The notes beneath the pieces are model-generated. The model was not told the origin of the DNA and searched no databases. It saw only the letters and a list, made by a program, of their open reading frames with translations. Source: Rhizaria sp. SCN 62-66 (Eukaryota). From it: DNA of 32,487 nucleotides. This document shows, piece by piece, positions 9,701 through 31,722 of the stretch. Position 1 is the stretch's first letter; every line of letters begins with the position of its first letter. The translations under genes were made by a program, and so were the position numbers. Location of the stretch: NCBI GenBank assembly GCA_001724265.1, contig MEDY01000340.1:1-32487 (forward strand), written 5' to 3'.

Positions 9701-11999
9701 CGGCGGCGGCAGTGGTGGCAGTTGCGGGGACGGAGATAGTGAAGACGATGTAGCTGCCCAGGAAGCCGCCATGCGTTACGCCTCAGCACTGTACGCTCGC
9801 GCGCAACAGCAACAACAACAGCAGCATCAGTTGCATCGGCCGCTGTTGTCTGTCACCACTGCGGTTGTCCATCACATCGATAATGGTGACGATGACGACA
9901 TGTTTGCCGACACGGGCGCTCTCGACGCCGCGCTCGATGCGGCTGCTGCGATGGCTGCGGCCCACAGCAGTAGCTGGGACGTGTTGGAGCCCCGCACAAA
10001 GCGCGCCCGCAGCCCTCATGTCGGTGACCAGCTCGCTCCCCTCGGTGCCAGCGCTGCGCATCTGCCTAGCGCAGTCCAATTTACTCTGGGTGCCGTGTCT
10101 AGCGCTGTTGCTTTCGGTGCCGTGCCGAGCGATGCTGCTACGGGTGCGGGTGCTGTGCCGAGCACTGTCACCAGCCCCGCGCTGGCGTCTCGACACTTCC
10201 AACCCCTCGCTGCTGCTGCTGCTGCTGATGCTGCTATTGTTGGTGGTCTGTCCACGCCCCCGCGTGTCCCGGCCCCGAGCGCTCTGGGCGCAATGGGCGC
10301 TGTCCCCAGTCCGGGCTCGGCGTTTACACTTGCTCGCCCCGCGCATTCCCCAGCACCGGGGGCTAGCCGAGAGCAGCCGTTTGTGAGTGCTTTTGGCCGG
10401 GCCAACCCTACCGCCGCCGCCGCCGCTGCCGCTGCTTCTGGTGCAGCTGCAAACGGTGTCGCTGCAACGGGTGAGATGAAGGCGCCGCCGTTGCCGCTGA
10501 GTGGTTGGAAGTCAGTTGTGCCCTCTGGCCGCCTGCATCGGAGTGACCGTCGGCGCAGTGACCGTAACCGTGACCGTGAGCATGACCGTGACCGTGAGCG
10601 CGGGGACCGTGAGCGTGGTGGGTGGCTGAGTAGTCTCAGCGACGAAGACTGCACCACATCTACCACCGACGACGACGACAACAACAGCGCTATCGACGTG
10701 AAAGCTGGTGCTGCTGCGGCGGCGTCTATGGACCGTAATCGGACACCGATGGATGCACTGTCACAGGAGATGGCCCGCCGCCGCGCTATCGCCCACGCAG
10801 CCGCTATGGCCGAGCTCCAGCGCACACAACAACGACACCAACAGCACCAACAACAGCAACAGCAGCAGATTACGCTGCTTCAACAACAGGAGTTTACCCA
10901 GCACCAGCAACAACAACAGGATGTCGCTGCGTCGTTGACTGCAGCTCTCACAGTAGCCCGGCCTCGCAGTGCAAATCAGCAGCAGCCTTACTGTGGCACA
11001 AGCCTCCCCTTTGATGCCGTTCGGCCTGGCCCCGAGCCCTCGTTCGCACCCGTGCTGCCAACCTCGGCCGCTCGCCCCGCCACTGCCACTATGGCCCCCT
11101 CGGCCTTCGCCGCCCGCCCCGCTACTGCTGTAGACTTCCTTTCTGCTAACATGACACGCTCTATTGCTGCGCCCCTCTCTGCCTTAGCTGGGAACCGCCC
11201 CTCCACAATGGCTTCCTTTTCGTCGTCAGCTCTGGCCCGCCCCGCAACTGCTGTGTCATTCTCCCCCGCTGAAGCCCGTTCTGACACTATTGACCGCCGC
11301 TTCAACATTAATGCTGCGGCCTTCCCCACTGCTGAAGCCGATTCTGCCACCGTAAACAGCTCTATCACTGCTAATGTTACCGCGTCTGCTGCTGCTACTG
11401 CTACTGCTACTGCTGTTGTTGATGTTGATTTGGGCGTTGCAGAGCAGGCTGTGACGCCGCGACGGACTGTGGCGTCGGCGATGATGCGCCCGCCAGCCAC
11501 CGCACTCTCCGTTGTCTGCTCTGGCGTTTTGCTGCGTGACAATGACACCGTGACATCATGCTCCGACAATAACAACGCGAATAACGACGACGTCGTCGAC
11601 GACGACGATGGCAATAATGGCCATAATAACAATGCTGAACAATGGGGTGACGCCATGATTGCGTCAGTCCGCGACAGTACTGAACTCGCCCAAACGGACT
11701 TCTCCGCCAGCGGTCTCGCCGCCGCTGCTGCTGCGGCTGTTGCATTGACCCCCACTAGCGGCACGCGCAGTGGCTGTGTCAGCCACAATATGGGCGGGTT
11801 CGTCTCGATGGCGAGTCCGCTAGTGCAGAGCGTTGCGTCAACGGCCTCGGCAGCGGCGGCGGCGGCAGTAAGTGAAGCTCGTCTCGGCGCCAACAACAGC
11901 GCGATTGACAATGATAGTGAATCCACCGCTGCTGTTGCGGAGTGTGAGGACGCGGATCTCGTTGCAGGCGTTGTTTATATGACTGATGACGCTGCGTAA
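3771..11999 (+). CDS. Giant intronless Ser/Thr kinase, STE11/MAP3K (MEKK/NPK1)-like, 2742 aa; kinase domain at ~4926-5706 followed by ~2000 aa of low-complexity tail
   Basis: LGQGAFGEV, MALKQ, HRDIKSHNLL, DFG, TPLWAAPE and DIWALGCTVIEMATGRDPW, the last typical of MAP3Ks. First in-frame ATG is 3771 (the ORF-track start at 3696 is TTG; in-frame TAA at 3624). Ends TAA. Confidence 0.9.
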   Translation: MPLPNRGPKATGEDMRRLHQRTITQVYSFMEILHDHTCNRNRSNRPSDDPASDADSLSSHSSFYAGADQASLGPLAARVPRATACYTDAQALVSSIAALGESTEELTRALRMLGLPASLLVAGGEVLPAPGAAPADPAAPRRVVMMATPPDNDYNYDDINNSNHCYNAGCAKTNNPSVNGHHCAPAAGHASLSTLYPAPVPAPAPVPSQSNNSIFSTPKKNKSSLNTRGMVNNSAVSGAVAAGNCGADEVTALPQPELLHVAPSPPAPLVAAAAAAAAAASNGSGHVVGVSAASSPALSASASLPRADWVAEDASWTKPAEEEETAELRRRALAAALNVPVNSLPPAADAEAARAAAAHVCPQSPANVLAARLRSAPQVKPAPLRFKKLSKLGQGAFGEVFKVLMIETGAVMALKQFRRATADERRHAEAVAREVRLMQRLRHPHVVTFFGTFEAKDSLAVLMEYAPGASLHALLRDTGGLSEPLARRATRQVCLALAHCHAHHIVHRDIKSHNLLLDAFGHVKVADFGSARVLDRAHAATAANAADFTPLWAAPEVLERGPQGAAVDIWALGCTVIEMATGRDPWAECRFSTLPQAIAHIAEPGSLPAMPATLSALGRDFVSQCLQRDQTMRPTAAQLLDHPWLADAEAQTTVTAVNTSVSETAAAAAAAATGTTQSTKNASVAVAAPVTANATAATAATAAAAAAVAAAAAVAGQVSEAAIGDLKAASVAAQLHQLQAQVQQNHSRSHSHLHAQRLRSSPQQQQQYHQSESSQQQQSFTSCADTTAGDASVMLAVHDASLSMVRALDGSAADSFALTDTTSTGGFEYSTRTSAGAGIADAADCPQSALVNNSVAMTDTDGNYSDSILNNISAFTPTVAASNSDDSVASFNGAVSNSSSNSVNNKTSPTTTAVAAPATVDVDVATMAMTDTETDKPLLATTTSVLTPTAPVTPAVSPALSAAKPVTNSTGPACGSASASTSARVSRANSAVAVGRTAHMSEGAAVAAAVSAAAAAAVVANLAAMPPPSSVSARLKSLHPSQSQSQSRSQSRSQSQSQSQSLTSQPQAQLQPHVVSAAPRASARPPLSRTSSGLLPGANATATATASATANVTTNWGSAECGVPSSRTCAGGNSSGNRSGNPTPGAVRSAFTSPRGGSVVRPPSTPGSGCGSVSVARLDESQLRVELTQAREAVAELSAISATHAAESRRLAAQLLELQGQMQALQRSNQHENSQSFTRNGARSGDTSAAASNIGSRSGSSNSNNSYGDGSGNGQSQIQSQSQSQSSCNGSTVGTPKAGPATTRMPAAASMPYSSYSPHANGTTNGQQQQQGVNDGPIRVPALPLGSSFPYATSDLLASVTTSHGSTPGTGPCFGAEGPFVQPPQSLHLPVSVSVGAHSHSKSQSALMAQPQAAMMAQAQAAARAHADAAVAQTLAAATQFASGNNSTERQVIPAAAAAAAMKKNSNNAQRLPSVQDGSPGVGPTFAAVSINNSDTVTVVNNNAAAAAVVAAASAGVTMGDGDRISPRAMFSATQPTQASASFAAAATTTAVGGGAVTAVLTPVEPTRSCSVMMRSLDINGKNSINNNSNNHSNCDTDNVPSCSPRRRTVAASALLTPISNRNNNNNSNNSNISPQLLSSPLFAASGTLPLSASQDAALASASLRSLAPGTLGAVVSGSGLFSNSGMFSNSGGISGGEANFNDNASPNKLSASANASLPRSFISSSSRAFAPTRAPHAAAAIAPPAALAGSLGLGLAGAAAAEAAEASVAFQEEENAAFNAQYGAEAMPDTRGTNLRAARRFLFNAANNDQNNSQNGNHDHSPPPVVNLNASFAAVAAVRNRRASEPSDDETDDTDNSVRFLPTVLKPVALHYGDAHASAAAAAAPSVPSVHNTPMRHPAVSLTGRLGGVNAVAHTGNVGGDLNSSGGNNSPPYPTPGSAIGATAAVVASSSARGVKRRTPSLSILPAEPWSSNSNSGGGSGGSCGDGDSEDDVAAQEAAMRYASALYARAQQQQQQQHQLHRPLLSVTTAVVHHIDNGDDDDMFADTGALDAALDAAAAMAAAHSSSWDVLEPRTKRARSPHVGDQLAPLGASAAHLPSAVQFTLGAVSSAVAFGAVPSDAATGAGAVPSTVTSPALASRHFQPLAAAAAADAAIVGGLSTPPRVPAPSALGAMGAVPSPGSAFTLARPAHSPAPGASREQPFVSAFGRANPTAAAAAAAASGAAANGVAATGEMKAPPLPLSGWKSVVPSGRLHRSDRRRSDRNRDREHDRDRERGDRERGGWLSSLSDEDCTTSTTDDDDNNSAIDVKAGAAAAASMDRNRTPMDALSQEMARRRAIAHAAAMAELQRTQQRHQQHQQQQQQQITLLQQQEFTQHQQQQQDVAASLTAALTVARPRSANQQQPYCGTSLPFDAVRPGPEPSFAPVLPTSAARPATATMAPSAFAARPATAVDFLSANMTRSIAAPLSALAGNRPSTMASFSSSALARPATAVSFSPAEARSDTIDRRFNINAAAFPTAEADSATVNSSITANVTASAAATATATAVVDVDLGVAEQAVTPRRTVASAMMRPPATALSVVCSGVLLRDNDTVTSCSDNNNANNDDVVDDDDGNNGHNNNAEQWGDAMIASVRDSTELAQTDFSASGLAAAAAAAVALTPTSGTRSGCVSHNMGGFVSMASPLVQSVASTASAAAAAAVSEARLGANNSAIDNDSESTAAVAECEDADLVAGVVYMTDDAA
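6892..6953 (+). repeat. CAGTCT/CGGTCT hexamer microsatellite encoding an (SQ/SR)n run in the MAP3K
   Basis: tcacagtctcagtctcagtctcggtcacagtctcggtctcagtcccagtctcagtcccagagc, translated SQSQSQSRSQSRSQSQSQSQS. Confidence 0.8.
10545..10617 (+). repeat. GACCGT/GAGCGT hexamer repeat encoding an alternating-charge RD/RE tract in the MAP3K tail
   Basis: Translated DRRRSDRNRDREHDRDRERGDRER. Confidence 0.75.
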
Positions 12000-13294: not shown

Positions 13295-16039
13295 TCATGT
13301 CTCGCTGTGGGCAGCGCGCTGTGCGAACCTGAGCGAACTGAGCGTCTCCTCCGCCGCCGCCTCCTCCGGCGCCAGGGCAACCACAAACGCGACCTTGGCC
13401 TTGGGCGCAAAGCTTTCCTGCAGTAGATGCGTCAGAGTGGAGTTGCGATATGGCACATGCGTCGCCCTCGCGCTACCACTGTTGCTATTGTTGTTTGCGG
13501 GGGCGAGTGCGGCCACAACTTGCCCGAGTGCGGAGAGTGAAGAATTGATCGCGATTGCCTCAGCACGACCGGCGCCTTCGACAAGGCTTTCTTTGATACG
13601 CTCTGAGCCCGCGAGATCAACCAGGGTGACGAACCCGCGTTTCACGGTCTCACGGTCGCTAGCCCCGCTGGCGCGACCACCGCCACCGTCACCCGCGCCA
13701 GCAGAACCGTTACTGCCCCCGCCACTGCCACTCGCACTCGTAGAAACGCTGTCTGCACTATGCGTGAGCGTGATGTAGAGCTGAACGATGAGATGTGACC
13801 GTGAGGAAACGTCGTTCAGCGCAGTATCCCGCGTCCTCCTCACAGCGCACGCCTCCGTGTAGAGCGCCATGAACGCAGCCGCGTCGGCCACAGGGACGGG
13901 ATCCGCGCCCACTGGCTCTGGGGTGAGGGCCTGTGCGTTGTTAAGCCGCAGCTCAACCTTGCGCGGGGCGGTGATCGAGGCAGCGCCGGGGATTGCGGGC
14001 GTGAGGGAGTAGACTGAGTCGAGGTAAACCTCTAAGACGCGGGCAGTAATGGAGCCCCGCCAGCCATTGCCGCGGCGGGAAAGGGCGTTCAACCGTGCGA
14101 ATAGGTCGGCAACGGCGCGTGGAACAATACCAACGCTCGCGGGCATTGCCATCGCACTCCTAGAACTCTCTGCAGTCGCATTAGCAGCAGTAGTCGTGAA
14201 AGAAGTGTCGTTGTCACCGTTACCACCAGTCATAGTATACGTCTTGCCCGCCCCGGTCTGTCCATAAGCCAGCACGGTCACCCGCCCGCCGTCCAACGCA
14301 AGCTGAATCAACGGTGCCAGTTCAGAGTACACAGTGGCGTTGTCGTCATCTGCAGCGAAAACACCGTCAAAGCCCCACTTAGAGCCGCTGGCAGTTGAGT
14401 TGTTATTGTGACTGTGGCTGCTCACGGTCCCTGACTGTGAGGTGGGAGCTGTGTATCGAAGCTCGCGTTTGAGAGCCCCTTCCCTCACTGCGGGCGTCAC
14501 AGCCACAGTTGCCGTCAGCTTGGCGCTCACAGTGTTGCTGTTCTTGGCCGCATTATTACTGCTGCTGTTGTTGTTGTTATTGTTGTTGCTGTTAATGTTA
14601 GCGTTGATTGCGCTGCGAGGGGGACGGATGCGGCAAAAGACGCGAATCTGCCCCTTGAGCAGCAAAAGCTCCCCCAACAGCGCAGCCCGTGCGGCCTCAG
14701 ACTCCTCTAGCTCAGCCTTGGTCACCGCTGTCTCCTCCTTAGCCTCCGCCAACGCCGCAGTCAACGCTGCCAGTTGAGCGGTCAAAGCGGCTACTTCAGC
14801 AGTGAGAGCAGACCCTTCTGCAGTGAGAGTCGAGACTTTCGCAGCCAACACTGTCCCTTCTGCGGTCAGAGCGGCTCCCCGCGCCCGCTCTTCGGTCAAC
14901 GCCGTCTCAGTGGCGGCGGCGGTGAGCTGCAGCGCGGAAACGCGTTGTTTCAGCGCAGCAGCTTCACGAGCAATGGCTTCCCATTGGCCGACACGGGCTG
15001 CAACGGACGTCTCAGCACCGGTAACGACCCCTCCCGCATTGCCACCGCTGCCGCTGCCGCTGCCGCCGCCGCCGCCGTTGCTGTTGCTGTGAGTAAAGCT
15101 AGAGTTAGAGGAGTTTTGGAGTTGAGCCATACGGGCAGCGATGCCGCTTTGAGCGCCGGCGCCAGTGCGGCGGGCAAAGGGGGCCGTTTTAGAGGCGGCG
15201 TTGCTCGACGCAGCAGAATCAGCATGTGAAGATTCATGGCTATCCTTGCTCTCATCCTCATCATCGTCATCGTCGTCATCGTTGATGTTGCTGATGTTAT
15301 TGCTCTTGGGATCGAGGTCAGTGTCCGTGTCAGGGCGAGTGCGCTTGCGAGGGGATTTGGACGGGCTAACCAGTTTCTTGGCCGAAGCAGCAGTCGCAGC
15401 CGCCGCCGCAGTGGCAGAGGCAGCAGCACCAGGCTTCGTCGTCTTCTTAACTGCCGTCTTTGCAGTCACGGTTGCTGCCACGCCGGGCTTGGGAGCAACC
15501 GTGGCGACCGGGGTGGCTAAGCGAGCCGTGGCCGCCTTGGCTGCAGCACCAGCAACAGCAGCAGGAGCGGCGACGGCGGCGGCGTCGGTGGCGGCGGCGG
15601 CGGGGCGAGAGCGTTTGACTGCGCTGCTACCAACAGCGGCTGCAGTCGAAGAGGCGACTGAGCTACGTGAAAGAGCAGGGCGTGCAGTGGCGCTAGGGGT
15701 GGTGGTTGTCGCAGGCTTATGACTGCTGCCACGGGGGGTAGCTGGGACCAGAGGAGCCGTTGCTGACGATGCTGTTGCAGTTGCTGTTGCTGTTGGGGGG
15801 CGGGCGCGGGCGGGCGTTGTCACAGCAGCAGCGGCGGCGGCGGCGACGGCGGCGGTGCCAGTGCGGGATGTTGCGGGGCGCGCAGGGTGGTTTTTGGCAG
15901 GGGTCGCAGTAGAGGGGCGTGATGCGGTGGTGGCCGCAGAGGAAGAGGAGGCAGCAGTGCCGCCGCCGCTGATGCTGCGGGTGGAGGATGCACGTGCGGG
16001 GGTGCTAAGAATAGCGGATCCCGAACGGTTTCCCTGCAT
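13295..16039 (-). CDS. Kinesin-14 family (C-terminal motor, Kar3/Ncd/KIFC-like), 914 aa
   Basis: Basic Ala/Thr/Pro-rich tail, then coiled coil, then neck/motor start LKGQIRVFCRIRP, P-loop GQTGAGKT, switch I NDVSSRSH, switch II LVDLAGSER, HVPYRNSTLTHLL and ETLSSLRFAQR at the extreme C-terminus. Ends TGA. The ATG is immediately preceded by an acceptor-like TAG, so a small upstream exon is possible. Confidence 0.93.
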   Translation of the reverse strand: MQGNRSGSAILSTPARASSTRSISGGGTAASSSSAATTASRPSTATPAKNHPARPATSRTGTAAVAAAAAAAVTTPARARPPTATATATASSATAPLVPATPRGSSHKPATTTTPSATARPALSRSSVASSTAAAVGSSAVKRSRPAAAATDAAAVAAPAAVAGAAAKAATARLATPVATVAPKPGVAATVTAKTAVKKTTKPGAAASATAAAAATAASAKKLVSPSKSPRKRTRPDTDTDLDPKSNNISNINDDDDDDDEDESKDSHESSHADSAASSNAASKTAPFARRTGAGAQSGIAARMAQLQNSSNSSFTHSNSNGGGGGSGSGSGGNAGGVVTGAETSVAARVGQWEAIAREAAALKQRVSALQLTAAATETALTEERARGAALTAEGTVLAAKVSTLTAEGSALTAEVAALTAQLAALTAALAEAKEETAVTKAELEESEAARAALLGELLLLKGQIRVFCRIRPPRSAINANINSNNNNNNNSSSNNAAKNSNTVSAKLTATVAVTPAVREGALKRELRYTAPTSQSGTVSSHSHNNNSTASGSKWGFDGVFAADDDNATVYSELAPLIQLALDGGRVTVLAYGQTGAGKTYTMTGGNGDNDTSFTTTAANATAESSRSAMAMPASVGIVPRAVADLFARLNALSRRGNGWRGSITARVLEVYLDSVYSLTPAIPGAASITAPRKVELRLNNAQALTPEPVGADPVPVADAAAFMALYTEACAVRRTRDTALNDVSSRSHLIVQLYITLTHSADSVSTSASGSGGGSNGSAGAGDGGGGRASGASDRETVKRGFVTLVDLAGSERIKESLVEGAGRAEAIAINSSLSALGQVVAALAPANNNSNSGSARATHVPYRNSTLTHLLQESFAPKAKVAFVVALAPEEAAAEETLSSLRFAQRAAHSET

Positions 16040-16645
16040 CTATAAGGGTAAAATATCGACACAACGTAATCAATTGTTGTATATGTTAGATTGTGAAGTT
16101 AATCTAGCAGAAATACACATCTGGTGCGCGCAAATGCAGTGAAGCAACAAATTGCGAGAGCCGTTGGCACGTGTCGTGCGCCGATTGCCGCAGAGATGGT
16201 TCTAAAGATACACACAACTCGATTTAAAGTGCTAATAGCGCGTTAGATACGATGCACCTTTGTAGATCGTAAATCGCGCATTTTACCACCTGCGACGGTC
16301 ATAAACACATCAATATTTAGTTTCTCGAACTTGCTGTGGAGGCGGACCAACAGCAATCGACGACTGGCCGCGGCCACGCGGGTCTGCTGGCGGTTTCGTC
16401 ACCGTTAACTTTAGAGACCAGCCACGCAATATACCTTCGTCATTCTGCAATGATAGCGTATATTTATTTGTCTCACTTGTTTATCTATTAATCCACTTAA
16501 TTACATTTTTTATTGTACAAAACCTAGGGCTCCAGAGCTGTTCCAGTGCAGCTCTCTTTCCTCTCTTGTTTCTGACCGCACCTCTGCCCGCCTCCCACCA
16601 GGCCCGCCTTGAGCCCAGCGCCAGCGCCAGCGCCAGTTGCGCCAC
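16040..16645. promoter_or_regulatory. Compact divergent intergenic region (probable bidirectional promoter) between the kinesin-14 and coiled-coil genes
   Basis: Only ~600 bp separate two head-to-head start codons, with an AT-rich core at ~16440-16525. Inferred from gene geometry; no specific motif identified. Confidence 0.45.
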
Positions 16646-18061
16646 ATGTCCATCTACCGTCCTCCGACGATTTCCCGTCGCGCTCAGACCGGACCCGTGA
16701 CTGTGGCCTCCCAACCGGCCACCATGTCACCCCCTGCGTCCTTCTCGATCTACCTCGCAGCGCGGCCATACTCGCCGCCCTCAGCCCGCGTCAAGACTCT
16801 CGCCGAGTCCCCCGCCAAGTCGGTCGAGCACGAGGCTGCGCGAATCCGCTTGTTGGACCATTCACGCCTTATCCGCGCCCATAACGCCTCCGATAACAAC
16901 AACAACGACAGTACTGACTACACCTCTACCAACGCTGCTGCGTTTCAACAGCAACAGCAACAGCACAGTGGTTCATTCTCATCATTCCCCGGCAGCAACT
17001 CCCTCACTCTCTCGCAGCAGCTGCAGCAGCACTCTAGTTACTCCGACACAACAACAACAACAACAACAGCAGGAGCAATGGTCGATTCATCATCATCGTC
17101 ATCATCATCGCTGCAGCAACAACAGCATCACTATAGCGCGTCTTTCGCCCCTAACCCCGACCCCACCGCCTCGGGCGGCCGCGGCGCCGACAAGTGGTCC
17201 AAATCCTGGACCAGCGACGTCGTCGCCCTCAACGTCGGTCTCCGCCGCCCCGCCGTCCTGCCAGTCCCCCCCCGCACACAGGAGGTCCTCGCAGTTGAAA
17301 CCGAGCGCCGTCTGGCCGAGGCGGACCGGCAAGTGCTGCTAAACCGCGTCCGCGCGCTGCAGGGGCAGGAGCGGCGGGCGGCGACCAAGATCCACGCCGC
17401 CGCCGAGAAGCTTGACCGCGTGCGGACGGTCCGCGCACAGCAGAGGGTCCGCAAGGGGGCTCGTGACGAGCTGATCGCCGAGCTCGCGGCCCAGAGGTAC
17501 GACGAAGCCCAGGCGAAGCGTGACGACGCGCGGCGGGCGCGGGCCGCGGTGGAGGAGTATAAGGCGGCAGTGGCGGCACAGAGGCAGCATCAGCGGGCTC
17601 AACTGCAGGCTGAACGGCGGGAAGGGGAGATGTTGCAGCGGCAGGTGCGGGACGCGGACGAGGCAGCGCGCAGGGCCGCGGCGTCGGTGGTCCGCGCGCA
17701 GGGGCGGCTGCACCAGCAGCGGAGGGAGGCGGCAGCGGCGCTGAGGCAGGCGGCGGCCGAGGGGGAGCGCGCGCGGCGTCTGCAACATGCTGCGGAGGCG
17801 AGGGATGCGGCGTTGAGGGACATGGACGCACTGCAGAGGGCGGAACAGGAGATGTTGGCGAGGCTGCAGGCCAGGGGGGCGCAGCATAGCGCGGTGTTTG
17901 AGCAGTTGGCGGGGGAGCTAGAGCCCTCTGCGGCGGCCGCTCAGTCACACTCTCAGTCCCACTCATCATCCTCACAGGCATACTCGCCCTCGCAGTCAAA
18001 TGCGCAGTCAAATGCGCTGGGACAGGGACAGGGACAGGGCTACCATGGGAGGGTGCGTTGA
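16646..18061 (+). CDS. Uncharacterised coiled-coil protein, 471 aa, with Q/S/T low-complexity N-terminus
   Basis: First ATG at 16646 (in-frame TGA at 16610). Long R/E/Q/A helical region (RRLAEADRQVLLNRVRALQGQERRAATKI ... MDALQRAEQEMLARLQ), strong codon bias, ends TGA. Confidence 0.82.
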   Translation: MSIYRPPTISRRAQTGPVTVASQPATMSPPASFSIYLAARPYSPPSARVKTLAESPAKSVEHEAARIRLLDHSRLIRAHNASDNNNNDSTDYTSTNAAAFQQQQQQHSGSFSSFPGSNSLTLSQQLQQHSSYSDTTTTTTTAGAMVDSSSSSSSSLQQQQHHYSASFAPNPDPTASGGRGADKWSKSWTSDVVALNVGLRRPAVLPVPPRTQEVLAVETERRLAEADRQVLLNRVRALQGQERRAATKIHAAAEKLDRVRTVRAQQRVRKGARDELIAELAAQRYDEAQAKRDDARRARAAVEEYKAAVAAQRQHQRAQLQAERREGEMLQRQVRDADEAARRAAASVVRAQGRLHQQRREAAAALRQAAAEGERARRLQHAAEARDAALRDMDALQRAEQEMLARLQARGAQHSAVFEQLAGELEPSAAAAQSHSQSHSSSSQAYSPSQSNAQSNALGQGQGQGYHGRVR

Positions 18062-21000
18062 AGAAAGAGGAGAGAGGTGATCTGAAAAGTCGATTTGAGG
18101 CAGATGCCTCCGTGTTATTTGGAGCGTCCATCTCTCAATGGCCAGCGATGATGCTGTGAATGATTGATTCGATTCGAGTGAGGTGAGCATTGATTCCGTT
18201 CAACATAGAGATGTATCTTGCATATGTACCAACGCAACCATACGCATGTGGAGCCTATACGACTTTAAATTGTCCGAATCCATCTGCCCTGGCGTCACAC
18301 GAAAGTCCTTGGTCAGGCATGTTCGTCGCTATCAGTGAGGATGTGCCTTATATACAGCATGTCGGACGAGCTCACGATGTCTGTCCGCGTTTCTGTATTG
18401 TTTTAGCATTTCTATTCTTTCTTTCCCTGATTTAACATCTCCAACACGAATCTATATCGTGTCAAATGCAATTTCTGATCCTCGTATTGACGTTATTTCA
18501 TTTAAAGTCGTGCTTAATCACCTTATCATGGAAGGTTAATACAGTTTAAGCAAGTTTATGAGTTATATCAGAATGTTTTTGATCATATATTGCGTAATCA
18601 TTTGTGTATGACCTCATACTGACTGTAATATTTGCATTTTTCTACAAGTTAAAAAGCCTCGCCGGAAAAAATCTCAGCTATTTATAAGCTATAAAATTAA
18701 AATCTTGAACTTAATCGTCTTGGTAAGATTTATCAAAGAATTCCTTTATCTCATTTTCTGACAGTCACCATACACAGTTGTTGTTTTTTATTCTGTGATA
18801 TCTGTCATCAAACACACATCCCGACTTATCGTGGCATGTCCGACGATAAACGGGGGAAACACACCTCTACAGTCAGAGGGGCACTGAAGAGCAGCTTGGG
18901 ACCTGCTACATCATTTGATGCTTTGAGGACAAAAACCGAGTTCGAGGACGAACGTTTTAAGATTAAACACTATGTGATATATCGAATTAAGCAATATCTA
19001 CGTCTGTAGCGTGTCTAAACTAGTTCTGTCTATCGCAAAAACAACATGCAATGTTGCAGGCGCGTTTTCATTCATGGGATGCCAAAAAGCAATAACGTAC
19101 ACGCGTTAACATTGTTTTCATTTGTCTGTCTGTGTTTTACAAAATCTTATGCTTGGAATGAGACAATAAGACCTTGGTCGACACGAGTTCGTTTTAATAT
19201 CTTAATTGATTACAAAAGTAGTGTGTATTCTGACTGACTAAGCGCGGACAGCAAAGTCGACAATCGAGCTAAGCACAGCAGCATGTGATACAGAAGAGTG
19301 AGCGCAGCTTAGTTGGCAACCAACCATTTCCCCCTAACTTAAACCCTAAACCCAGCCAGTCAGTCAGTCAAAGAACCAGTCATGTGGTGTCCAAGGTCAC
19401 AAATCAAGTCAAGTCAAGTTATTGAATCGAGCTGAGTGTAATCCACAGAGAGTGTCCTGAAGTGCTGCCGAAACTAGAGCACTGTGGTATCATCAAACTG
19501 GGATTACGTCCATCAGATCAATCCAATAGTGTCAGAGACAGTGAGTGTGTGAATGTGTTGGTTGAGACTAAAACAAAGCAAGATATACAGAAACAGGAAC
19601 GGATACAGAAACGGATACAGAGCGGGCGGGGGCAGTGATCGCACTGAGCGTTGCAGAGCCCCCTGCGGCACGCAAAAGACTCACGGGATAAAACTAGGCA
19701 GACAAACAAAATATAAAAGAACTCTAAGTGAAAAAAATGAACAATGATATGAAAACACGAGAGATAAAAAGAACCAGAACAAAAGCAGGAAGGGGAAGAA
19801 AGAAAGAAAAACAAAAACATACACACGAGACAAGTTGGGAGGGGTTCCTGTTACGAACGAAATAAAACACGGCATGGCACGAAGCATGAAAACATCGATG
19901 CAAGTGTGTTGTTGACAGAATTGATAAAACGAAGGAAAACTAAACCAGCAAAGGAAACAGAGTTTTTTTAAACATAAAAAGGAACACAGGTGATGTAAAA
20001 ACCAGGAGTTTGAGTGTGTGTGTGTGTGAGTGATTGTGTGTGAACAACATTGTGTGTGAGGGGCGGGCGAGCAACAAACAGGACATCAGACTGACGGAAG
20101 CAGCTGAATTGCGAGTTGAATCAAAGGGGGAGTTGGTTGCATGTGCGTGTGGATGTGGATGCGGTGGCATTGTAGGGGATTGTTATTGTTGTTAAGCAAG
20201 ACGGGAGAAGTTACGATTAAAAGCCATGATTAAAACAACAAACGACGGTAGTGTGTGATTAAAGCGTGACATGTGAGTCTGTGAATTGGTGTCAGGAGCG
20301 TGGAGGGATGTCTGTGCATTGACACGACACAGAAAGTGTGAAATGTACGAAGAGTGTGATGTCGTGTTTACGCATGCAGCAGATGTGCACAGTGTGAATG
20401 AGAGAGAGAGTGTGTGTGTGTTACATTAGCGGACACTGCACAATGGCATAGCATACAAAACACTTCAAGAAACAACTGTGTGCGGGGCATACATACACGG
20501 GAAAAACACACGGACATATCACGCAATATAACACTTGTTGTTGTGGGAGAATAATGATGGGAGAGAAATGAAACGTTTAGGATCAAAGAGATTCGTAATA
20601 ATGAGGCAATAATCTGACAAAACTGAACACTGTGTGGTCAATTTGCGAGGGCCAATTACACTCACCCACCCCGTTTGTTACAAAACAAACCGAAGCGGGG
20701 GAAGGGAATGGAGGCAAATGACTGGTGACGTCGTCTGAAGCAGTGACAACTGCACAAGAAGTGCGGGTGTTGTTGCCAGAGCCAGAACCACCGAAACAGT
20801 GAGTGGCAAAGACGGACAATGACGCGATCGATGAAGACGCGGAGTGGTGAGAGAAACAGAGACAGCCGACAGACAGGGGAATGCAAAGGGGGATTCTCGA
20901 TGAGACCACAAAGAAAAAAGAAAAAAGTCGTCAAAAGGGGGATGTTGACGTTGCGACACGTTTAGAGACTCAAAACAATAGAAACAGGAGCAGCGAACAA

Positions 21001-21109
21001 ACATAAACGAAAAATCACAAGAGACACTGTCATGAAACAGCATTTCAAAGAAAAAGATAAAGAGGTAACAAAATAGCAGAAACGAGAAGAAGAAAAAAAC
21101 ACTGTTGAT

Positions 21110-22178
21110 TTACTCACTGCCGCCGAAAGCAGGTTGTGCCGGGACAGGGGTAACTCCAGCGTTTGAGCTGGCATTGCTGTCTCCCCGCCTCAGACCCCTG
21201 CGCTGGGGTGTCGGGGACAGCCGGTCAGCGCCAGACCCGCCGCCGCCGCCCACGGTCACACTCTGACTCTGGGGCTGACCGGTGGTGGGGGCGAGAGATA
21301 GACCCTGGATCTGCCGGCCCAGTGAGAACGAGAACCTCGGAGTGTCCTCCGTGCCATTGTTGTTGCTGCTATAAACACCATTACCACTGCCAACACCCTA
21401 GCCATTGATATTATTTGCATTTGCATTTGCGTTGTTGTTGTTATTAGGGTTTGAGTTGTTACTGTGCGAGTTTGAGCTTGCCCGGGGTGTCATCGTCAGC
21501 GGCGGCAGCATCGCAGGCGAGTTGCTGTGTTGCTGCAGCTGTACCTGCGCTGCCGAGGGAGCGGATGGATGCATTTCGACCAAGGACACGCCTGCGAGAC
21601 CGGCCAGCGGGAGCTTCGACCCCTTGGGCGACGGGGGGACTGACAGAGCAGTGCCACTGGCACTATTGTTACCAACAGTGGCGGCAGCGGCGGCAGAGGA
21701 AGTGAGGGGGATTTGCCCGTTCGTGGTCATACTGCGGCGAAACTGCGGAGTCGAGCTTCCTTGTTGCTGCTGTTGAGGCTGTGGCTGCGGTCCGGGGCCA
21801 CTGGTCGCGGTAAGGGAGACTGTGAGCCCTGATCCAGGGATGCCACCAACTGAGGGGTTGCTGTTGTTGGAGGCTCCGTGCGAGGGTGATTTGTGGCCAG
21901 AACCTGTGGGACGGGTGCGGGACGCGAGCGTGCTGTCCACGGTCAAGGCTGAGCTTGATCCGGCACGGTGTAGTGGAGCCTGTTGGCCTAGCTGCAACTG
22001 CTGCTGCTGTTGTTGTTGTTGTTGTTGCTGTTGTTGATAGTCGCCGCCGGCGGTCGGGCCGAGTGAGAAACCCGACGGCTGCTGCTGTTGCTGCATCTGC
22101 TGCATTTGTTGCTGCTGCATGTACTGTTGCTGCTGAGCGTGCGACGGTGACGCCGATGCTCCTAGCCCAGGGCTAAAA

Positions 22179-22216
<38 letters not shown>

Positions 22217-25200
22217 CTGCATCGCGAGTGAGACTGAGAGCCGCCCCTGGGACGACTGGCGCTGATGGTGCCCCTGCCCCTGCCCTTGGTACTGCTGCTG
22301 CTGTTGTTGATACTGCTGCTGCTGATGCTGCTGGAACTGGTTACTCGAGGACATGGCCGCTGCCGAGAGGATCGCGTCCCGGCCCCGGCGCGGGGACGGC
22401 GCTGACGGAACCATACTTCCCCCACCACCGTTAGTAGCATTAACACTCACATTATAGCCGGTATTGGGGTTGCCATTGAGGTTGTTGTTTGTGCTCACGT
22501 TCATGTTTGGACTGCTGCCCGAGGGGCCCAGCGGCGGAGACGGCATATGCGGCGACGGCGACGGGGACCTCTGCATCGTATTCACACCACCCACATTGCC
22601 ACTTCCAGTCAAACCACCGCCGACCAGAGGGGCGTTGTTGGCGCCAGTGCGGACCGACCGGGAGGAGTTGCTGATGACCGAGGGGGCACGTCCCTGTCCC
22701 TGCGCGGGCACGTACAGACGCATCCCATCGCGCGTGAGGCCAGACATCGCGTCCCCGGCCAGTGAGCCGCCGCCGTGCTGAGACCCTGCGGCGGAGCTGG
22801 TCGGCGAGTGCATGACCGAGGGAGCGGGGGAGTAGACCGACGCCGCCGGTGATCCGACAGGGGAGTAGTCGTACGCCGACGCGAGAGCTGAGCAGCGGAG
22901 CATGTTGGCACGCGTGGAGCCCAAGGCCTTGAACAACACGTGTTCTTGGGACACCTGCGCGCCTTCCAGCGACGGCTCGCGGGCGCGGCGGGAGGTTTCG
23001 AGACCGGCATCGTAGGCCGCCGCCGAGAGAGGCATCTGCTGCTGCTGGCCTTGCCCATACTGTTGTTGCTGCTGCTGACCGTAATACTGCCCACCACCGT
23101 AGTTCGTAGCGCCGGTTGCAGTGTCGACGTCTCCCAGCGCAGCGTAGTCAAACTCGTAGAAAAGCGGCTGCAGCTTGGGCGGCATCAACGGCGCCGGGGC
23201 ATCGTCATCCTCGCCACCCCCACCCTGCTGTTGCTGCTGCTGGGCCTGGGCCTGAGCTTGTTGGGCGGCGGCGATGGCGGCGGGGGAGCCTGGGGGGTGG
23301 GCGTTGATCGCGGCCTGCGCCTGCGCCTGCTGCTGCTGCTGCTGCTGGGAGGGGGGTGCGACGTACCTGTAGTTCTTGAACCCCTTCTGCGACGTGGGGA
23401 GGTTGGGGAAACACTTGTTCATGTACGCCGCGCGCTCGGCTTGCGGAATGGGCGGGAAAGGGGCCGGGCCACGGCGGTGTTCAATGGCCTCCCAGTCCAA
23501 CGACGCGAACCAGGGGTGGGATTTGACGGCGTTCCAGTGGAAATTGGTGTCGCTGTCGATCTCGTCCAGAGTGCGGGCAGCCCAGCCGTCCTTTTGCTTC
23601 AGACCGGGGGGACCGGAGGTGGCCGTGGGGGCCGGTGACGGGGACGGCTGAGCGCCGGGCCCCGGGGACGCCGCTGGAGAGCGCAGAGAGCCGCCGCCCC
23701 CCGCCCCGTTGTTAGGGACGCCAGGAACGGCGAAACGCGGGGAATCGACCGACATCACACCGTTATTGCCGTTGTTGCCGCCGAGGCCGGTTTGAGAGCC
23801 AGCGATGGAGTAGGCGTTGTTGGATGCGTTGCTGTTTGAGCGCGGACCAAGCTGCCTCACCTGGCCCTGCTGCTGCTGCTGCGACTGTGAGAGGCTCAGA
23901 GGAATCGACGCCTGGGGCAAGTGTAAGTGCCGCGTGCGGGGGCCGGGCGGGGTGTAGGTGATCACACCGTCCCCGTCCAAGTTCGCCGGCCAGTCTGTGT
24001 GACGGAAAAACTGGTGTGAGTAAGGGAAGTCGCTCAATAGTGTCGAGGCAGGGACACACGCGCCGGGCACCGGGAGCAGTTTACCCGCCTCGTCAGTATC
24101 GCCCGGCTGCGGCAGGTCGTGGAAGGGTAAGTGCCAGCCCTAAGTAGCCGCCTGGAGGAGTTGGCTGCGGTGGGCATCGAGGAGAGTGAACTGGCCGGGG
24201 TAGTGGGCTGCGGTGCCGAAGACGCCGCGGCTCGGGCTCGGGGTGCTCGGGACGACTTCCACGGTGATGGGCCCAGCTGCAGTGGTCGTAGTAACCAGTG
24301 TATGTGCCAACACGACCCCGGCGGCGGCGGCGGCGAGCGCGGCTGCCTGATCCAGATCCTCCAGTGAGTCCACCTCCGGCACAGTGAGCGAGCGCCCCTT
24401 CCGGACAAGCTCGGCACAGGCCTCACATCGGCATCCGGCGCAAGCGGGGCAGCCGCAGGGCACGGCGACCGGGATGGCGCGCGGGGCCAGGACCGCATGA
24501 GGCCCAGCGGCGGTGGCCACGGCGGCGAGGTTGTCGTTCATCGGGGCGGTACACGCAACCTGGTAGACGGGGACAGCGGAGAAACCCTCGAGGTTCAGAG
24601 CGCGGGCGGCGCGTTGAACGGCTTGCTGCGCTGAGGAGGCCGGCCCGGCGACGGCAGCAGGGATGGAGCGGTCGCTGCCGGCGCCGGCGCCGAGCGCGGC
24701 GGGGAAAGTGGGGGAGACCTGCTGCAGAGGAACATCGGTCGCCGGGTGGATGTGGTATATCTGGGCCATGCCGGGCACGTTCCCGTACCCGCGCACGTGG
24801 CCGTGGCCGATCCAGTGGCCCTCATCGGCGACAGCGACGGGGACCTTGACCGCGGTGAAGGTGTGGGGGAGAGCGCGGTCTAAGTGCGGGGGCAGGCCGA
24901 CGGAGAAGGCGGGCGGCCCCTGATAGTACTGCTGCTGCTGCTGCTGTTGCTGCATATGCTGCTGGTATTGGCCGTTGTTGATGTTGTTGTTGTGACAAGG
25001 GCAGGCGCATGAGCCCATCAAGTCAGGCCCGGGGCTGCGGGCGCCATCATCATCGCACGACCACAACATACGCTGCTGCTGCTGCTGCTGCTGACCGTTG
25101 GCTGTGACGCCGCTGCCGCCACGGCGAGGAGACGGCTGGGCCGCGATGTTGCTGTTGTTGTGGCCGCCGTGGAGACTCTGGGCGTGACCGGTGTTGCTGC

Positions 25201-26999
25201 CGGTGAAGTTGCCGTTGTTGCCGTTGGCGCCGAGGCCGAGAGCTGGGTCCTCCTCCTGAGTGGTGTGCGCGAGCCCGGGGGTCATCGAGGCACGCAGGGG
25301 AGGCCCGCCCGTGACAGAGCCAGACCCAGTGACGCCGAGACCGCTGAGGCCGCCGCCAGGAGTGTAGGGCGTGGCGAAACCACTGTTGGCGTAGCCGCCG
25401 CCGCTGTTGTTATGCCCCCCAGTGCAGCCACAGCTGCGGCACACGCCACCGGCTGTGGTAACCCCCAGATCAACCATGCCGGAAAACCCGCTGTTGGTGA
25501 GAGGTGGGTACACGCGGGGCGGGGCTGGGGCAGTGAAGTCGTTGTGGGGCAGACCGAGACGAACGCAGCGTTCAACCATGCGCATGCAGCTGAGTTCGCA
25601 GCCCAACCGGTCACAGGGGTTGGGTAAGGTGAGCCGCCGGATGAGGTCTTTGAATTCGCGGCTGAGGCGTGCGTTGGTTTTGAGGTCGTTGGGCGTGTTG
25701 GGGACGCCGGGGTGCAGGGACTGGGCCTTGCGGCGGCCGGTCACCATCTCGTACAGGGTTATTCCAAGGGAGTAAAAGTCGCAGGAGAAATCGTAGGCGT
25801 GGCCCGCGGCGGCTTCAGGAGACCGGTAGCCGCGGGTGCCGCCGCGGCCGACGATCGAGTAATGGTGGTCCTCCTCCAGCGGGCGGCAGAGGCCGTAATC
25901 GGTGACGGCGATGTGCCCGTCAGCGTCGATGAGCAGGTTGAGCGGCTTGATATCACGGTAAACGTAGAAGAGAGAGTGGATATGCTCCATCGCGAGGATG
26001 ATCTCGGCCGCACACAGCCGCACGATGTCCTCGGAGAGCCGTTGGGACGCCATGAGAGCCGAGTGGACATCGCCGCCGGTGTAGCAGGGCATGACGAGGA
26101 TGAGCTCTTCGCGTGTCTGGAAGGCGTGGAGGAGACGGACGACGTAGGGGGAGTGGGAGGCAACCATGACGGCACGTTCCATCCACAGCATCTATTGCAA
26201 CACAGCAGCAAAAGCAAGAGCAACAGCGCAAAAAGCAAAGCGAAAGAGAGAGAGGGGAGCAGAGGAGAAAGTTGAAGAAAGGTGAGGTTGGCAGAGGCGG
26301 ACATTCGGGATACAGCCAGAAAGGGTTTTTTGGGGAGAGGAAGAGAGTATAAGAGATAGAAATAAGTTGTTTTGTTTGCAAGCAAAGGTGACGTACGAGA
26401 GCGGAGGTTTTATCGGCCTCACAGATCGAGCGCTCGGCGAGTTGGGCATCGGTTAACCCTTCAGGTCCCTGTTGTGCCCGGTCAAGACCGAGCAAGCGTG
26501 CCTTGTTGATGCGCTTGACGGCAACGAGAGAGGAGAAATCGGGAACGCCCTTAGACTTTTCGCTAAGGCGGAGAGCGGCCTGGACGCGACCAAAGCCGCC
26601 GCGGCCGAGGGTCTGGGACGGGGGAAAAAGGGGAAAGGAAGCGGGAATGGAGCGGTGACAAGGGAAAGCATGTGCGGTAAGAATGGGACATAGAAAATGA
26701 CGAAAAGAGTCATGAAAAACAAAAGAGGAGAAAATCTGGCCGGGCTAATAAGGTATATGCGTAGTCTAAGTATCTGGTTATGGCATATTCGTCGAATAAG
26801 GAAGGGATCAAAGGCAAGAAAAGCCTTGTTTAGGTGGTGTGGAGGTGCTATGAACCACTAGTTAGTTTAGCTTCGATCACAGCACTCACAAACATCGAAA
26901 GGGACGGGAGTAAACCGGCAGTAAAGAAAAGTAACGTACCTTTCCGAGAAGGAAAGAGTCCAGGGAGATCTCCTGTGGTTGTGAAGCGCACAACCCCAT
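21110..26999 (-). CDS. AGC-group Ser/Thr kinase with N-myristoylation motif, ~1785 codons including two in-frame TAGs; exons 26999-26940, 26612-26397, 26191-21110
   Basis: Exon 1 MGLCASQPQEISLDSFLLGK; exon 2 TLGRGGFGRV...VAVKRI; exon 3 YRDIKPLN, DYG, GTRGYRSPE, DFYSLG, DRLGC. After the first TAG come WNAVKSHPWFASLDWEAIEHRRGPAPFPP and the hydrophobic motif FYEFDY. ORF-track pieces 24140-26191 and 21398-24070 are in the same frame, separated by one TAG. The frame continues 95 codons past the second TAG to TAA at 21112-21110. Confidence 0.88.
21980..22335 (-). repeat. Clustered CAG/CAA trinucleotide runs encoding polyglutamine tracts in the AGC kinase tail
   Basis: Several (ctg/ttg)n runs on the + strand, in frame as Q tracts on the - strand. 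Confidence 0.85.
26192..26396 (-). other. Intron 2 of the AGC kinase (205 nt, phase 0)
   Basis: CTC|GTACGT donor, pyrimidine-rich body, GCAATAG| acceptor. Joins the 72-codon exon 2 to MLWMERAVM (helix C region). Confidence 0.88.
26613..26939 (-). other. Intron 1 of the AGC kinase (327 nt, phase 0)
   Basis: AAG|GTACGT donor and long pyrimidine tract ending GTCCCAG|. Splicing gives FLLGK-TLGRGGFG, the expected lead-in to the glycine-rich loop. Confidence 0.88.
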
Positions 27000-28466: not shown

Positions 28467-29291
28467 TTACTCGCGGGACTGCTCACCAGCGGCAGCGGGC
28501 TTAGCGACATCAGTGGCATGGCCGGCAGCAACGAGGTTGGAGCGGACCTTGCGGATCTGGCGCTTCAGCTCCTGGGCATCCTCAAGGAAGGGGATGTAGA
28601 GCCAGACGCGGTTGAGGCACGGCATGGGCTTGCCGACGAGGAGCTGGGGGCAGGGGCAGCCAGTGGGGATGGAGGGGGGGCCCTGGCCGAGGGGCATGCA
28701 GGGGTTGCCCCAGATCTTGCCGCCGGCAGTGAAGCAGCAGGTGCCCTCACCGTGCATGAAGACGACCTCGCCGCACGAGTCGAAGCCGGTGGGGCAGCAG
28801 GAGCAGTGAGTGAGGAAAGGACGGCAGCAGTCGGGGACGGTAGAGAGCTGAGCAACGTCACGGTCGAGGTACAGAACCTGGGGGTTGTCGACGATTTGGT
28901 AGCAGACCGAGGAAGCGTAGTTGTACTCAATGCGGTCCTCGTAGAGGTGGACGTAGGAGGCCTTCTTGAGCTCAGAGGTGTGGCAGAGCGCGAAGGAGCA
29001 GGGGAACGCCTGGGTGGCGAGGAAGTGGAACAGCACGATGCGGTCAGAGATGGGAGCAGAGTAGATCAGGGTGGTGTTGCCGCCGTTAATGTTGATCTTC
29101 TCGGCAGCGAGCATGCCGGGGTAGCCGCACATGGGCTCCTTGGGGCCGGCGGGCTCGGCAGCAGCGGCGGGCTCAGCGGCAGCGGGCTCGGAGGCAGCGG
29201 GGGCCACGGCAGCGGCAGCGGGGGCAGCAGCAGGGGTGGCCTCGGCGGGGGTGGCCTCGGGAACGTCGGTGGTGTTAGGCTCAGCAGACAT
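28467..29291 (-). CDS. Cys-rich protein of unknown function, paralogue A, 274 aa, with Ala/Pro/Glu-rich N-terminus
   Basis: Strong C/G-ending codon bias, ATG...TAA, and colinear motifs shared with the 30964-31722 gene. Confidence 0.88.
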   Translation of the reverse strand: MSAEPNTTDVPEATPAEATPAAAPAAAAVAPAASEPAAAEPAAAAEPAGPKEPMCGYPGMLAAEKININGGNTTLIYSAPISDRIVLFHFLATQAFPCSFALCHTSELKKASYVHLYEDRIEYNYASSVCYQIVDNPQVLYLDRDVAQLSTVPDCCRPFLTHCSCCPTGFDSCGEVVFMHGEGTCCFTAGGKIWGNPCMPLGQGPPSIPTGCPCPQLLVGKPMPCLNRVWLYIPFLEDAQELKRQIRKVRSNLVAAGHATDVAKPAAAGEQSRE

Positions 29292-30963: not shown

Positions 30964-31722
30964 TTACGCGTCACGGGACTGCTCGCCCTCAGCGGGGGCC
31001 GCGGCGACACCGACAACCTTGCCCGCGACAACCTTGTGCGCCTCGACAATGGCAGCACGTTGGTCAGTGAGCTTCTGGATGAAGGTGTCAAGGCCGTCCT
31101 TATCGACGAAGGGGAAGCACACCCACTGCTCGTTGCCGATGGGGCAGAAGCCGAAGAGGCAAGGGCCACCGAGGCAGGCGCCAGTGCCGGCGGGGACGAG
31201 AGGGGAGGCGAAGCGGCGGCCACCGGCGCAGCAGACACCGTTGGTGGCGCCATGGCCGATGGCGGTAGTGCCGCACATGCCGCAGCCGTCGGGGCAGAGC
31301 ATGCAGTGGGTGAAGACGGGGAGGCAGGGGCCGGCCTGCTCGAACTTGGCAGCCCAGTCACGGTCGAAGTAGGAGACGGTGGTCATGTCCATAACCCAGC
31401 AGAGGCACGACATGGGGATGTTGGACTCGACGTGGTCGTCGTAGATACGGTGGAAGGTGTACTTGGCCAGCGCGTCGTGGTTGCAGATCATGCACGACAT
31501 GGGGGAGCAGATCGACATGGTGAGGTGGAAACACCGGAGGCCGTCCTTGGAAATGGGGGCATCGTAGACGAGGGTGGACGACTTGCCGGCAGCGTAAGTG
31601 GCAGCGATGGTGGACGACTTGGTGTCCATGATTCCGTAACGGAACTCCTTGCGGATGTAAGTCGGGTCATCGGTGGGGTCGTAGGCGGGGTCCTTCATGC
31701 GCTCGAGCTCGGCGTTGTCCAT
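30964..31722 (-). CDS. Cys-rich protein of unknown function, paralogue B, 252 aa
   Basis: Codon bias starts at ATG 31722 (MDNAELERMK); the ORF-track extension to 32049 is a pyrimidine-rich non-coding leader. Shares TLxYxAPIS, YxDxxExN, YxDRD, THCxxCPxGxxxCG and GEQSR with paralogue A. Ends TAA. Confidence 0.88.
   Translation of the reverse strand: MDNAELERMKDPAYDPTDDPTYIRKEFRYGIMDTKSSTIAATYAAGKSSTLVYDAPISKDGLRCFHLTMSICSPMSCMICNHDALAKYTFHRIYDDHVESNIPMSCLCWVMDMTTVSYFDRDWAAKFEQAGPCLPVFTHCMLCPDGCGMCGTTAIGHGATNGVCCAGGRRFASPLVPAGTGACLGGPCLFGFCPIGNEQWVCFPFVDKDGLDTFIQKLTDQRAAIVEAHKVVAGKVVGVAAAPAEGEQSRDA

Follow-up and report, generated by a model that had tools for sequence, protein, structure and literature searches.

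UAA and UAG nearly always carry one shared meaning. The nuclear codes on record in which UAG alone is a sense codon assign it, according to the texts consulted, to leucine, glutamine, or serine (PMC5304391, PMC11687900, PMC9161772, PMC10770858, PMC13746701), and UAG as glutamate is recorded there only where UAA is reassigned too (PMC10553269, PMC12153298). Two UAG-only codes are described in PMC5304391. In Iotanema spirale, UAG encodes glutamine, UAA and UGA remain stops, a CUA tRNA was predicted, and Thr32 of eRF1 is altered. The genome analyzed here shares the UAG-only change, the CUA tRNA, and an altered Thr32, but the residue is likely glutamate, the substitution is T32S and not T32G, a tRNA gene was found, and UAG is very rare. 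The marks of the Iotanema code, UAG at Gln columns and a CUA tRNA derived from tRNA-Gln, give a mixed picture here: the CUA tRNA is not Gln-like, and Gln is absent or nearly absent at two constrained columns and favored at one. In Rhizaria sp. exLh, possibly a member of the same supergroup, UAG encodes leucine and genes end in UAA or UGA, as here; the description lists 384 UAGs in 71 genes and an eRF1 that has L69A but unchanged conserved motifs (PMC5304391), whereas in the present genome Leu69 is kept and UAG does not fall at conserved leucine columns.

Glutamate codes are known from two other lineages. The ciliate Oligohymenophorea sp. PL0344 (UAG = Glu, UAA = Lys, UGA stop) has a tRNA-Sup(CUA) that is nearest to tRNA-Glu, like the one reported here; unlike the present genome, it has also reassigned UAA, and its description counts ten genes for CUA tRNAs and in-frame UAGs in the thousands (PMC10553269). 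Blastocrithidia spp. (UAR = Glu, UGA = Trp, UAA also stop) use a tRNA-Glu(CUA) derived from the canonical tRNA-Glu, and the reassignment of all three stops is linked in that report to falling GC (PMC12153298), whereas the genome studied here is GC-rich with UAA and UGA as ordinary stops. UAA does not double as an amino acid codon here, as it does in peritrichs, Blastocrithidia, and PL0344. UAG is sense with UAA as stop in phyllopharyngean ciliates (Leu or Gln), Protocruzia (Gln), and Scotinosphaera (Ser), and CUA suppressor tRNAs are reported for two metagenome-assembled genomes (PMC11687900). UAG as glutamate with UAA as stop is not among the code variants in the consulted text of PMC11687900. 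It was not reported in the literature searched, a scope that excluded most subscription papers and supplementary code tables (e.g., Codetta, PMC11687900), and prior mention elsewhere is possible.

Here we describe a protist genome in which UAG alone is very probably decoded as sense in some form. On the sequence evidence presented below, it probably encodes glutamate and has no terminal use, with UAA and UGA serving as stops.

Host genome and sequence context

The window is the whole of contig C340 (32,487 nucleotides), part of a eukaryotic assembly of 34.9 Mb in 714 contigs (GCA_001724265.1, Rhizaria sp. SCN 62-66). Coding DNA has a GC content of approximately 0.6 to 0.7 and spacers of approximately 0.4, and introns are of the GT-AG type with a few hundred bases each. 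Metagenome runs that contain the window sequence are labeled bioreactor, wastewater, and activated sludge.

The host lineage may be Rhizaria, for which the evidence is weak: Plasmodiophora brassicae, a rhizarian, is the top named match of one kinase (57%) but is not the sister of the query in the tree. An insertion in polyubiquitin is a rhizarian marker. A polyubiquitin junction was sought at the ubiquitin loci and none was recovered, and the marker thus gave no readout. The ubiquitin genes at three of these loci (L172, L175, and L178) are divergent and carry an extra Met-Ser at the start, and the monomers of L172 have a three-residue extension at the end. A small-subunit rRNA gene that spans 4.4 kb and is interrupted by four group I introns (L001 1501-5945, G000:C706) is divergent and AT-rich relative to the coding DNA and may belong to the host. 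One relative was found in metagenomes (P0001, P0121), with 81 to 84% protein identity to the host. A metagenome scan with the eRF1 of this relative returned one same-organism contig and three distant eRF1s, and no DNA of a sister species.

The window also carries, on the minus strand, a RAD51 gene (603-1500, stop TAA) and a C-terminal-motor kinesin gene (13295-16039, stop TGA) and, on the plus strand, an open frame of 2,790 codons that includes a protein kinase domain (3627-11999, stop TAA) and a gene for a coiled-coil-like protein (16613-18061, stop TGA). None of these four contains an in-frame TAG past its likely start. Two tandem Cys-rich paralogues on the minus strand (28467-29291 and about 30964-31700) have similar C termini and belong to no Pfam family; an Atlas search gave weak leads to a PH-like or DUF7642 fold and no indication of the host lineage.

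A kinase gene with two in-frame TAG codons

The gene that prompted this analysis lies on the minus strand and is organized as follows.

26940..26999, minus strand: exon 1 (inferred), ATG + 20 codons, starting Met-Gly-Leu-Cys and ending at a phase-0 GT donor
26613..26939, minus strand: intron 1 (inferred), 327 nt, GT..AG with a pyrimidine tract, coding score −70
26397..26612, minus strand: exon 2 (inferred), 72 codons with the kinase Gly-rich loop and the VAVK lysine
26192..26396, minus strand: intron 2 (inferred), 205 nt, coding score −39
21110..26191, minus strand: exon 3, 1,693 codons plus TAA, with two in-frame TAGs
25595..26188, minus strand: kinase catalytic core, Pfam PF00069 positions 45-255, best solved relatives RSK, MSK, and PKA (AGC group)
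24140..24142, minus strand: first in-frame TAG, within an insert of approximately 690 residues, bridged unchanged in contigs of runs X3, X4, and X5
23444..23530, minus strand: last kinase helix and start of the AGC tail, aligning with RSK2 residues 278-306, past the first TAG
21398..21400, minus strand: second in-frame TAG, most likely Glu
21113..21397, minus strand: 95-codon G/S/N/Q/P-rich tail, recognized by coding score and composition
21110..21112, minus strand: true stop TAA, where composition and coding score drop
20825..21109, minus strand: T-rich, non-coding, 3' UTR-like sequence (T 0.46, score −46.9)

The inferred model comprises 1,785 codons in three exons. Its Met-Gly-Leu-Cys start may be an N-terminal lipid-anchor signal. 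A third TAG in this frame, at 26194-26192, does not serve as a codon, as it is the acceptor of the inferred intron 2.

The catalytic core is nearest to AGC Ser/Thr kinases and is followed by an AGC-type last helix; core and helix align collinearly with RSK, MSK, and PKA: RSK2 residues 72-271 match residues 4-198 of exon 3, and RSK2 278-306 match residues 888-916, which lie approximately 200 codons beyond the first TAG. Alone, this second match carries little weight (2.8 bits); what counts is its collinear position. Because the last helix lies beyond the first TAG, this codon must be passed to complete the kinase fold. In contrast to RSK, MSK, and PKA, the protein carries the insert of approximately 690 residues ahead of the last helix (23531-25594, minus strand), with a Cys-rich stretch and the first TAG, as well as a low-complexity tail of approximately 780 residues. 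Read in frame, the insert scores as coding (+89 and +35 bits), whereas the two introns score −70 and −39. Two TAGs in exon 3 exceed the genome rate (0.21 expected, p 0.02), which weighs against the reading favored below. The genome average is likewise exceeded in a lineage-specific kinase family (L040, L041, and L042) in which helical, repeat-like regions follow the kinase, with three in-frame TAGs in the L040 gene and at least two in that of L041.

The 95 codons beyond the second TAG

The original prediction was that the reading frame continues past TAG 21400-21398 on the minus strand for 95 sense codons (21397-21113) to the TAA at 21112-21110, and both this layout and the predicted peptide were recovered exactly. 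It had also stated that base composition breaks at the TAA and not at the TAG. With a dicodon model trained on the long stop-free open reading frames of this genome, the tail scores +8.4 bits in frame, compared with −46.9 for the 95 codons past the TAA, and GC/T fractions change from 0.64/0.18 in the extension to 0.41/0.46 past the TAA. The style of the upstream protein is maintained as described, with G, S, N, Q, and P together making up 0.57 both of the extension and of the preceding 204 residues. The other frames of the tail score −37 and −46 bits in the sense and −18.5, −32, and −56 bits in the antisense direction. The open frame by itself is weak evidence, because 6.3% of 5,000 base shuffles of the tail are also stop-free; the coding score of the tail was matched by none of the 5,000. 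Among the 95-codon stretches that follow real stops, 0 of 78 after TAA and 2 of 60 after TGA score as high as the tail.

The TAG at 21400 is bridged in contigs of runs X3, X4, and X7, from two studies of which neither is flagged as the source, with no alternative letters and no gap. These are near-identical strains (a single base differs over 6.9 kb across four runs). In the poly(A) run X7, contigs over 20992-21470 cross the TAG without a gap; they may be DNA rather than transcript, because the same run covers unspliced intron sequence (26305-26569 and 26542-26750). The joints found in run contigs lie within poly-Gln repeats and resemble other organisms. A Pfam search returned no family in the 95-codon tail. 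The tail contains a variant of a Ser-Pro-Arg-Arg motif that occurs at two earlier positions of the protein. Taken as protein, the 95 codons look like a real C-terminal disordered tail of an AGC-type kinase, and the tail itself is ordinary low-complexity sequence.

The tail had further been put forward as a second, independent instance in support of TAG decoding. It is a second instance, but its independence is only partial, because the first TAG sits in the same gene. The genome-wide support for TAG decoding is much stronger than that from the tail, and it bears out the proposal through in-frame TAGs in conserved domains, the lack of clear TAG gene ends, a CUA tRNA, and an altered eRF1.

Use of TAG, TAA, and TGA across the genome

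Stop usage was analyzed in a set of 878 kb, made up of three contig blocks, the window, and 50 loci, some of which were fetched for their TAG. Where the preceding sequence is strongly coding, the coding signal persists beyond 27 of 36 TAGs but beyond only 1 of 79 TAAs and 2 of 61 TGAs (27/36 versus 3/140, Fisher p 7e-21). In the 600 kb of unselected blocks, 21 of 6,298 TAG triplets have coding context on both sides, compared with 16 of 22,518 TAA and TGA triplets, which define the false-positive level of this filter (p 4e-6). UAA and UGA are ordinary stops, which end genes and are not used in frame. Stops that look like gene ends, with non-coding sequence after them and outside a GT donor, comprise 30 TAA, 30 TGA, and 3 TAG. 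Inspection by eye of the four cases of TAG followed by non-coding sequence showed two shadow frames, one frame that reaches a GT donor, unless it is an antisense shadow, and one that runs for 16 further GC-rich codons to a TGA, where the composition drops. No clean TAG gene end was found among the 63 gene-end-like stops; approximately 2.5% of the genome was covered, and rare use is possible.

As a sense codon, TAG amounts to approximately 0.3% of Glu codons and, counted with the same filter, is less frequent than even the rarest of the standard codons (21 versus 64 for ATA). Conserved coding sequence with an in-frame TAG comprises eRF1, a UBE2J-type E2, and four kinase domains, in addition to a kinase insert. 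Of 142 kinase matches, 9 contain a single TAG and 5 contain TAA or TGA in some mix; five of the nine TAGs are exonic (four in the domain, one in an insert) and three are intron acceptors. The only TAG among 43 DEAD-box matches is likewise an intron acceptor. Ubiquitin matches include 1 of 23 with TAG. When 28 TAG-bearing fragments were scanned, only 1 had a Pfam match over the cutoff. A ubiquitin-like copy with an in-frame TAG (L171, G000:C681 2800-3500) is fused to a further domain. This domain may resemble a tail-fiber chaperone/peptidase S74.

A tRNA with a CUA anticodon

A pattern search for anticodon arms with CUA gave seven matches, one of which is a tRNA (G000:C84, L106 1489-1561, minus strand). 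It scores 58 bits with the Rfam tRNA model, has a T-run behind it, and is flanked by two open reading frames that fit the codon model of this genome. Of the 23 host tRNA types, tRNA-Glu(CUC) is its best match (34.0), compared with 15.25 for tRNA-Gln(CUG) and 9.25 for tRNA-Gln(UUG), and its first five acceptor pairs are the same as in both tRNA-Glu genes and unlike those in both tRNA-Gln genes. The CUA tRNA and tRNA-Glu(CUC) are identical at only 47 of 73 positions. In a thermodynamic fold, the acceptor and anticodon stems form but the full cloverleaf does not (z −1.5). ARAGORN labels the gene as pyrrolysine; this label stems from the anticodon alone, and the body matches host tRNA-Glu. No tested identity set for eukaryotic Glu or Gln tRNAs appears in the consulted text of the review PMC9976931.

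One CUA tRNA gene was found. The genome gave no match to a Leu/Ser-type CUA tRNA pattern or to one Glu-type tRNA pattern, a D-arm pattern search matched only the CUA tRNA itself, and a DNA search with tRNA-Gln(CUG) recovered five copies, all identical, but no variant with CUA. Coverage of the tRNA complement is incomplete, as the Rfam search scored 63 of 506 candidates.

The release factor eRF1

One eRF1 gene was found (C63). It has an in-frame TAG in domain 1, the stop-reading domain (L076 1594-1596, minus strand), and the same TAG is present in a separately deposited metagenome contig (L156). At the genome rate, a TAG would fall in eRF1 by chance with a probability of 9 to 12%. A further locus recovered by the eRF1 search is, by resemblance, presumably a Pelota-like gene.

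Compared with 120 homologues and with numbering anchored on Thr32, the host eRF1 has Ser in place of Thr32 (Thr in 119/120) and of Gly57 (Gly in 120/120), Lys in place of Thr58 (Thr in 119/120), and Gln in place of Lys130 (Lys in 117/120). The full set of changes is T32S, G57S, T58K, L124M, L126M, and K130Q, of which T32S, G57S, and T58K alter stop-reading motifs, and E55, NIKS, L69, S70, Y125, C127, and F131 are unchanged. The eRF1 of the 84%-identity relative keeps Thr32 and Gly57 and has Lys58 in common with the host. Thr32 is described as bonding the G of UAG and as altered in Iotanema (PMC5304391), the standard-code relatives of which are reported with Thr32 intact (PMC9161772). It is plausible that the conservative T32S spares UAA, because release at both UAA and UAG is reported to be lowered by T32A (PMC3384315). 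The effect of T32S is uncertain, since the hydroxyl is kept.

The residue at TAG

Alignment columns at conserved TAG sites are few and mixed. In eRF1, the column of 120 homologues contains Glu in 108, Asp in 11, Val in 1, and Gln in none, with Val in the nearest relative. In the UBE2J-type E2, the column (150 homologues) contains Asp 99, Glu 15, Asn 12, Ser 12, and Gln 1, and may be tilted slightly by a search query that used the Glu reading. A CAMK column (120) contains Gln 31, Lys 29, Glu 14, and Asp 13, with Gln in the nearest relative. The TAG of the L041 kinase corresponds to Asp in two in-genome paralogues and to Gln in the sole outside homologue, the TAG of the ubiquitin-like copy takes the place of a Gln in the genome's own ubiquitins, and two TAGs sit in Gln-rich runs. 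Such mixed columns would arise if TAG appeared by single changes (from CAG, GAG, TAC, and others) at loosely constrained places. Because CAG to TAG is one transition, Gln-derived sites are expected even if UAG encodes glutamate.

A fixed-tree likelihood over three sites, with the top 60 homologues for each, gave Glu 0.87, Gln 0.07, and Asp 0.04, although Glu was first at no individual site. Summed Pfam scores over six sites, for the 7 of 20 residues that were tried, were 404.6 bits for Glu, 403.2 for Lys, 402.9 for Gln, 400.0 for Ser, 395.2 for Tyr, 392.5 for Leu, and 391.2 for Trp, so that Glu is ahead of Lys and Gln by 1.4 to 1.7 bits and of Tyr, Leu, and Trp by 9 to 13 bits. A flanking-composition classifier with a held-out accuracy of 0.26, applied to 41 TAG sites, gave an E-Q value of −0.5, with 20 ± 5 for Glu sets and −43 ± 11 for Gln sets, so that the TAG sites matched neither a pure Glu nor a pure Gln set, and ranked Tyr first. 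The TAG flanks are far less Gln-rich than those of true Gln codons. The sites and the CUA tRNA together make glutamate the most likely residue, well ahead, with glutamine as runner-up.

Three other residues were rejected. Leucine, as in the known rhizarian code, lies 12 bits below Glu and has a likelihood of 0.0003; tyrosine is excluded by the Pfam sums and the likelihood; and tryptophan, which A-to-I editing would insert, is the worst-fitting residue in both.

Interpretation and alternative explanations

The reading we consider likely is that UAG encodes glutamate without terminal use, while UAA and UGA terminate translation. A copy of tRNA-Glu(CUC) would have acquired a C36-to-A change that gives a CUA anticodon, would be charged by glutamyl-tRNA synthetase, and would read UAG but not UAA, because C34 cannot pair with A. 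The hold of eRF1 on UAG would be weakened at the contact of Thr32 with the third-position G, with the reading of UAA and UGA kept. Poor decoding, with the one tRNA gene found, may keep UAG at approximately 0.3% of Glu codons and let it gather in loosely constrained regions such as the kinase tail. The 95 codons would then be the disordered C terminus of an AGC-type kinase of 1,785 residues.

A code in which UAG is ambiguous, with a Glu-type suppressor tRNA competing against an eRF1 that still terminates in part, would place the tail on only some kinase molecules. We regard this as unlikely, though it is consistent with the rarity of TAG (approximately 0.3% of Glu codons; 21 versus 64 for ATA), far below the 1.38 to 1.66% of all codons given for Blastocrithidia (PMC12153298), as well as with the single CUA tRNA gene found, the conservative T32S, and the location of most TAG sites in unconstrained regions (1 of 28 fragments with a Pfam match). 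The same rarity also fits a GC-rich genome with little mutational push to TAG, no clear TAG gene end was found, and TAGs occur in eRF1, kinase, and E2 domains, where frequent termination would carry a high cost. A more speculative and slightly less probable version holds that the code is half-way, with a young tRNA-Glu(CUA) set against an eRF1 that partly reads UAG, and that eRF1 sets its own level via the UAG in its own N domain: much eRF1 would truncate its own synthesis, and little eRF1 would allow read-through. The autoregulation of bacterial RF2 is the counterpart of such self-tuning. If this were true, in-frame UAGs such as that at 21400 would be rheostats for the number of tailed molecules. 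The 9 to 12% probability of a chance TAG in eRF1 and the Val at that site in the nearest relative both speak against it. Glutamine, as in Iotanema, or a Glu/Gln mixture from a mischarged CUA tRNA appears improbable. Gln is the commonest residue and that of the nearest relative at the CAMK site, it is found in the outside homologue of L041 and at the ubiquitin-like position, two TAGs lie in Gln-rich runs, and its Pfam sum is only 1.7 bits below that of Glu. At the two most constrained columns, however, it accounts for 0 of 120 (eRF1) and 1 of 150 (E2) residues, the body of the CUA tRNA is Glu-like and far from both tRNA-Gln genes, and the TAG flanks are much less Gln-rich, with the single CAG-to-TAG transition predicting Gln-derived sites in any case.

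Under the standard code, the TAGs at 21400 and 24142 would be stops, and the tail would be a recently lost coding relic, or the genes would bear nonsense mutations or depend on RNA editing for rescue. The lack of a Pfam match in the tail and a comparison confined to near-identical strains are in keeping with this view. It would, however, truncate the sole eRF1 found and deprive the kinase of its last helix, A-to-I editing to Trp gives the worst residue fit, and the interruption of genes by TAG only, the absence of TAG gene ends, and the CUA tRNA would be left unexplained. The standard code is already largely refuted by the read-on counts and the CUA tRNA, and we consider it very improbable. 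An artifact at TAG 21400 is scarcely credible. Assembly error is ruled out there by the identical TAG in contigs of three other runs. A missed intron has precedents in this genome, as 3 of 9 single-TAG kinase matches and the sole TAG among the 43 DEAD-box matches are intron acceptors, but the TAG is unspliced in those same contigs and no pyrimidine tract precedes it (38% pyrimidine in the 40 nt upstream, versus 70% and 90% at the two inferred acceptors of the gene). The eRF1 TAG, moreover, is repeated in the separately deposited contig L156.

Implications

Annotation under the standard code truncates genes of this genome, including that of eRF1, and code detectors based on frequency could overlook a codon as rare as UAG is here. 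The very low use of UAG in a GC-rich genome offers a test of codon capture against an ambiguous intermediate. Unlike in the two cases described in 2017, the genome, the tRNA gene, and the eRF1 are all in hand. Several studies have recovered the organism in metagenomes from bioreactors and wastewater, and it may therefore be within reach. The host eRF1 offers itself as a candidate release factor blind to UAG alone. It bears directly on the discrimination between UAG and UAA and, in eukaryotes, on amber-free expansion of the genetic code. If true, UAG as glutamate beside two working stops in a GC-rich, intron-bearing protist would be a new genetic code.
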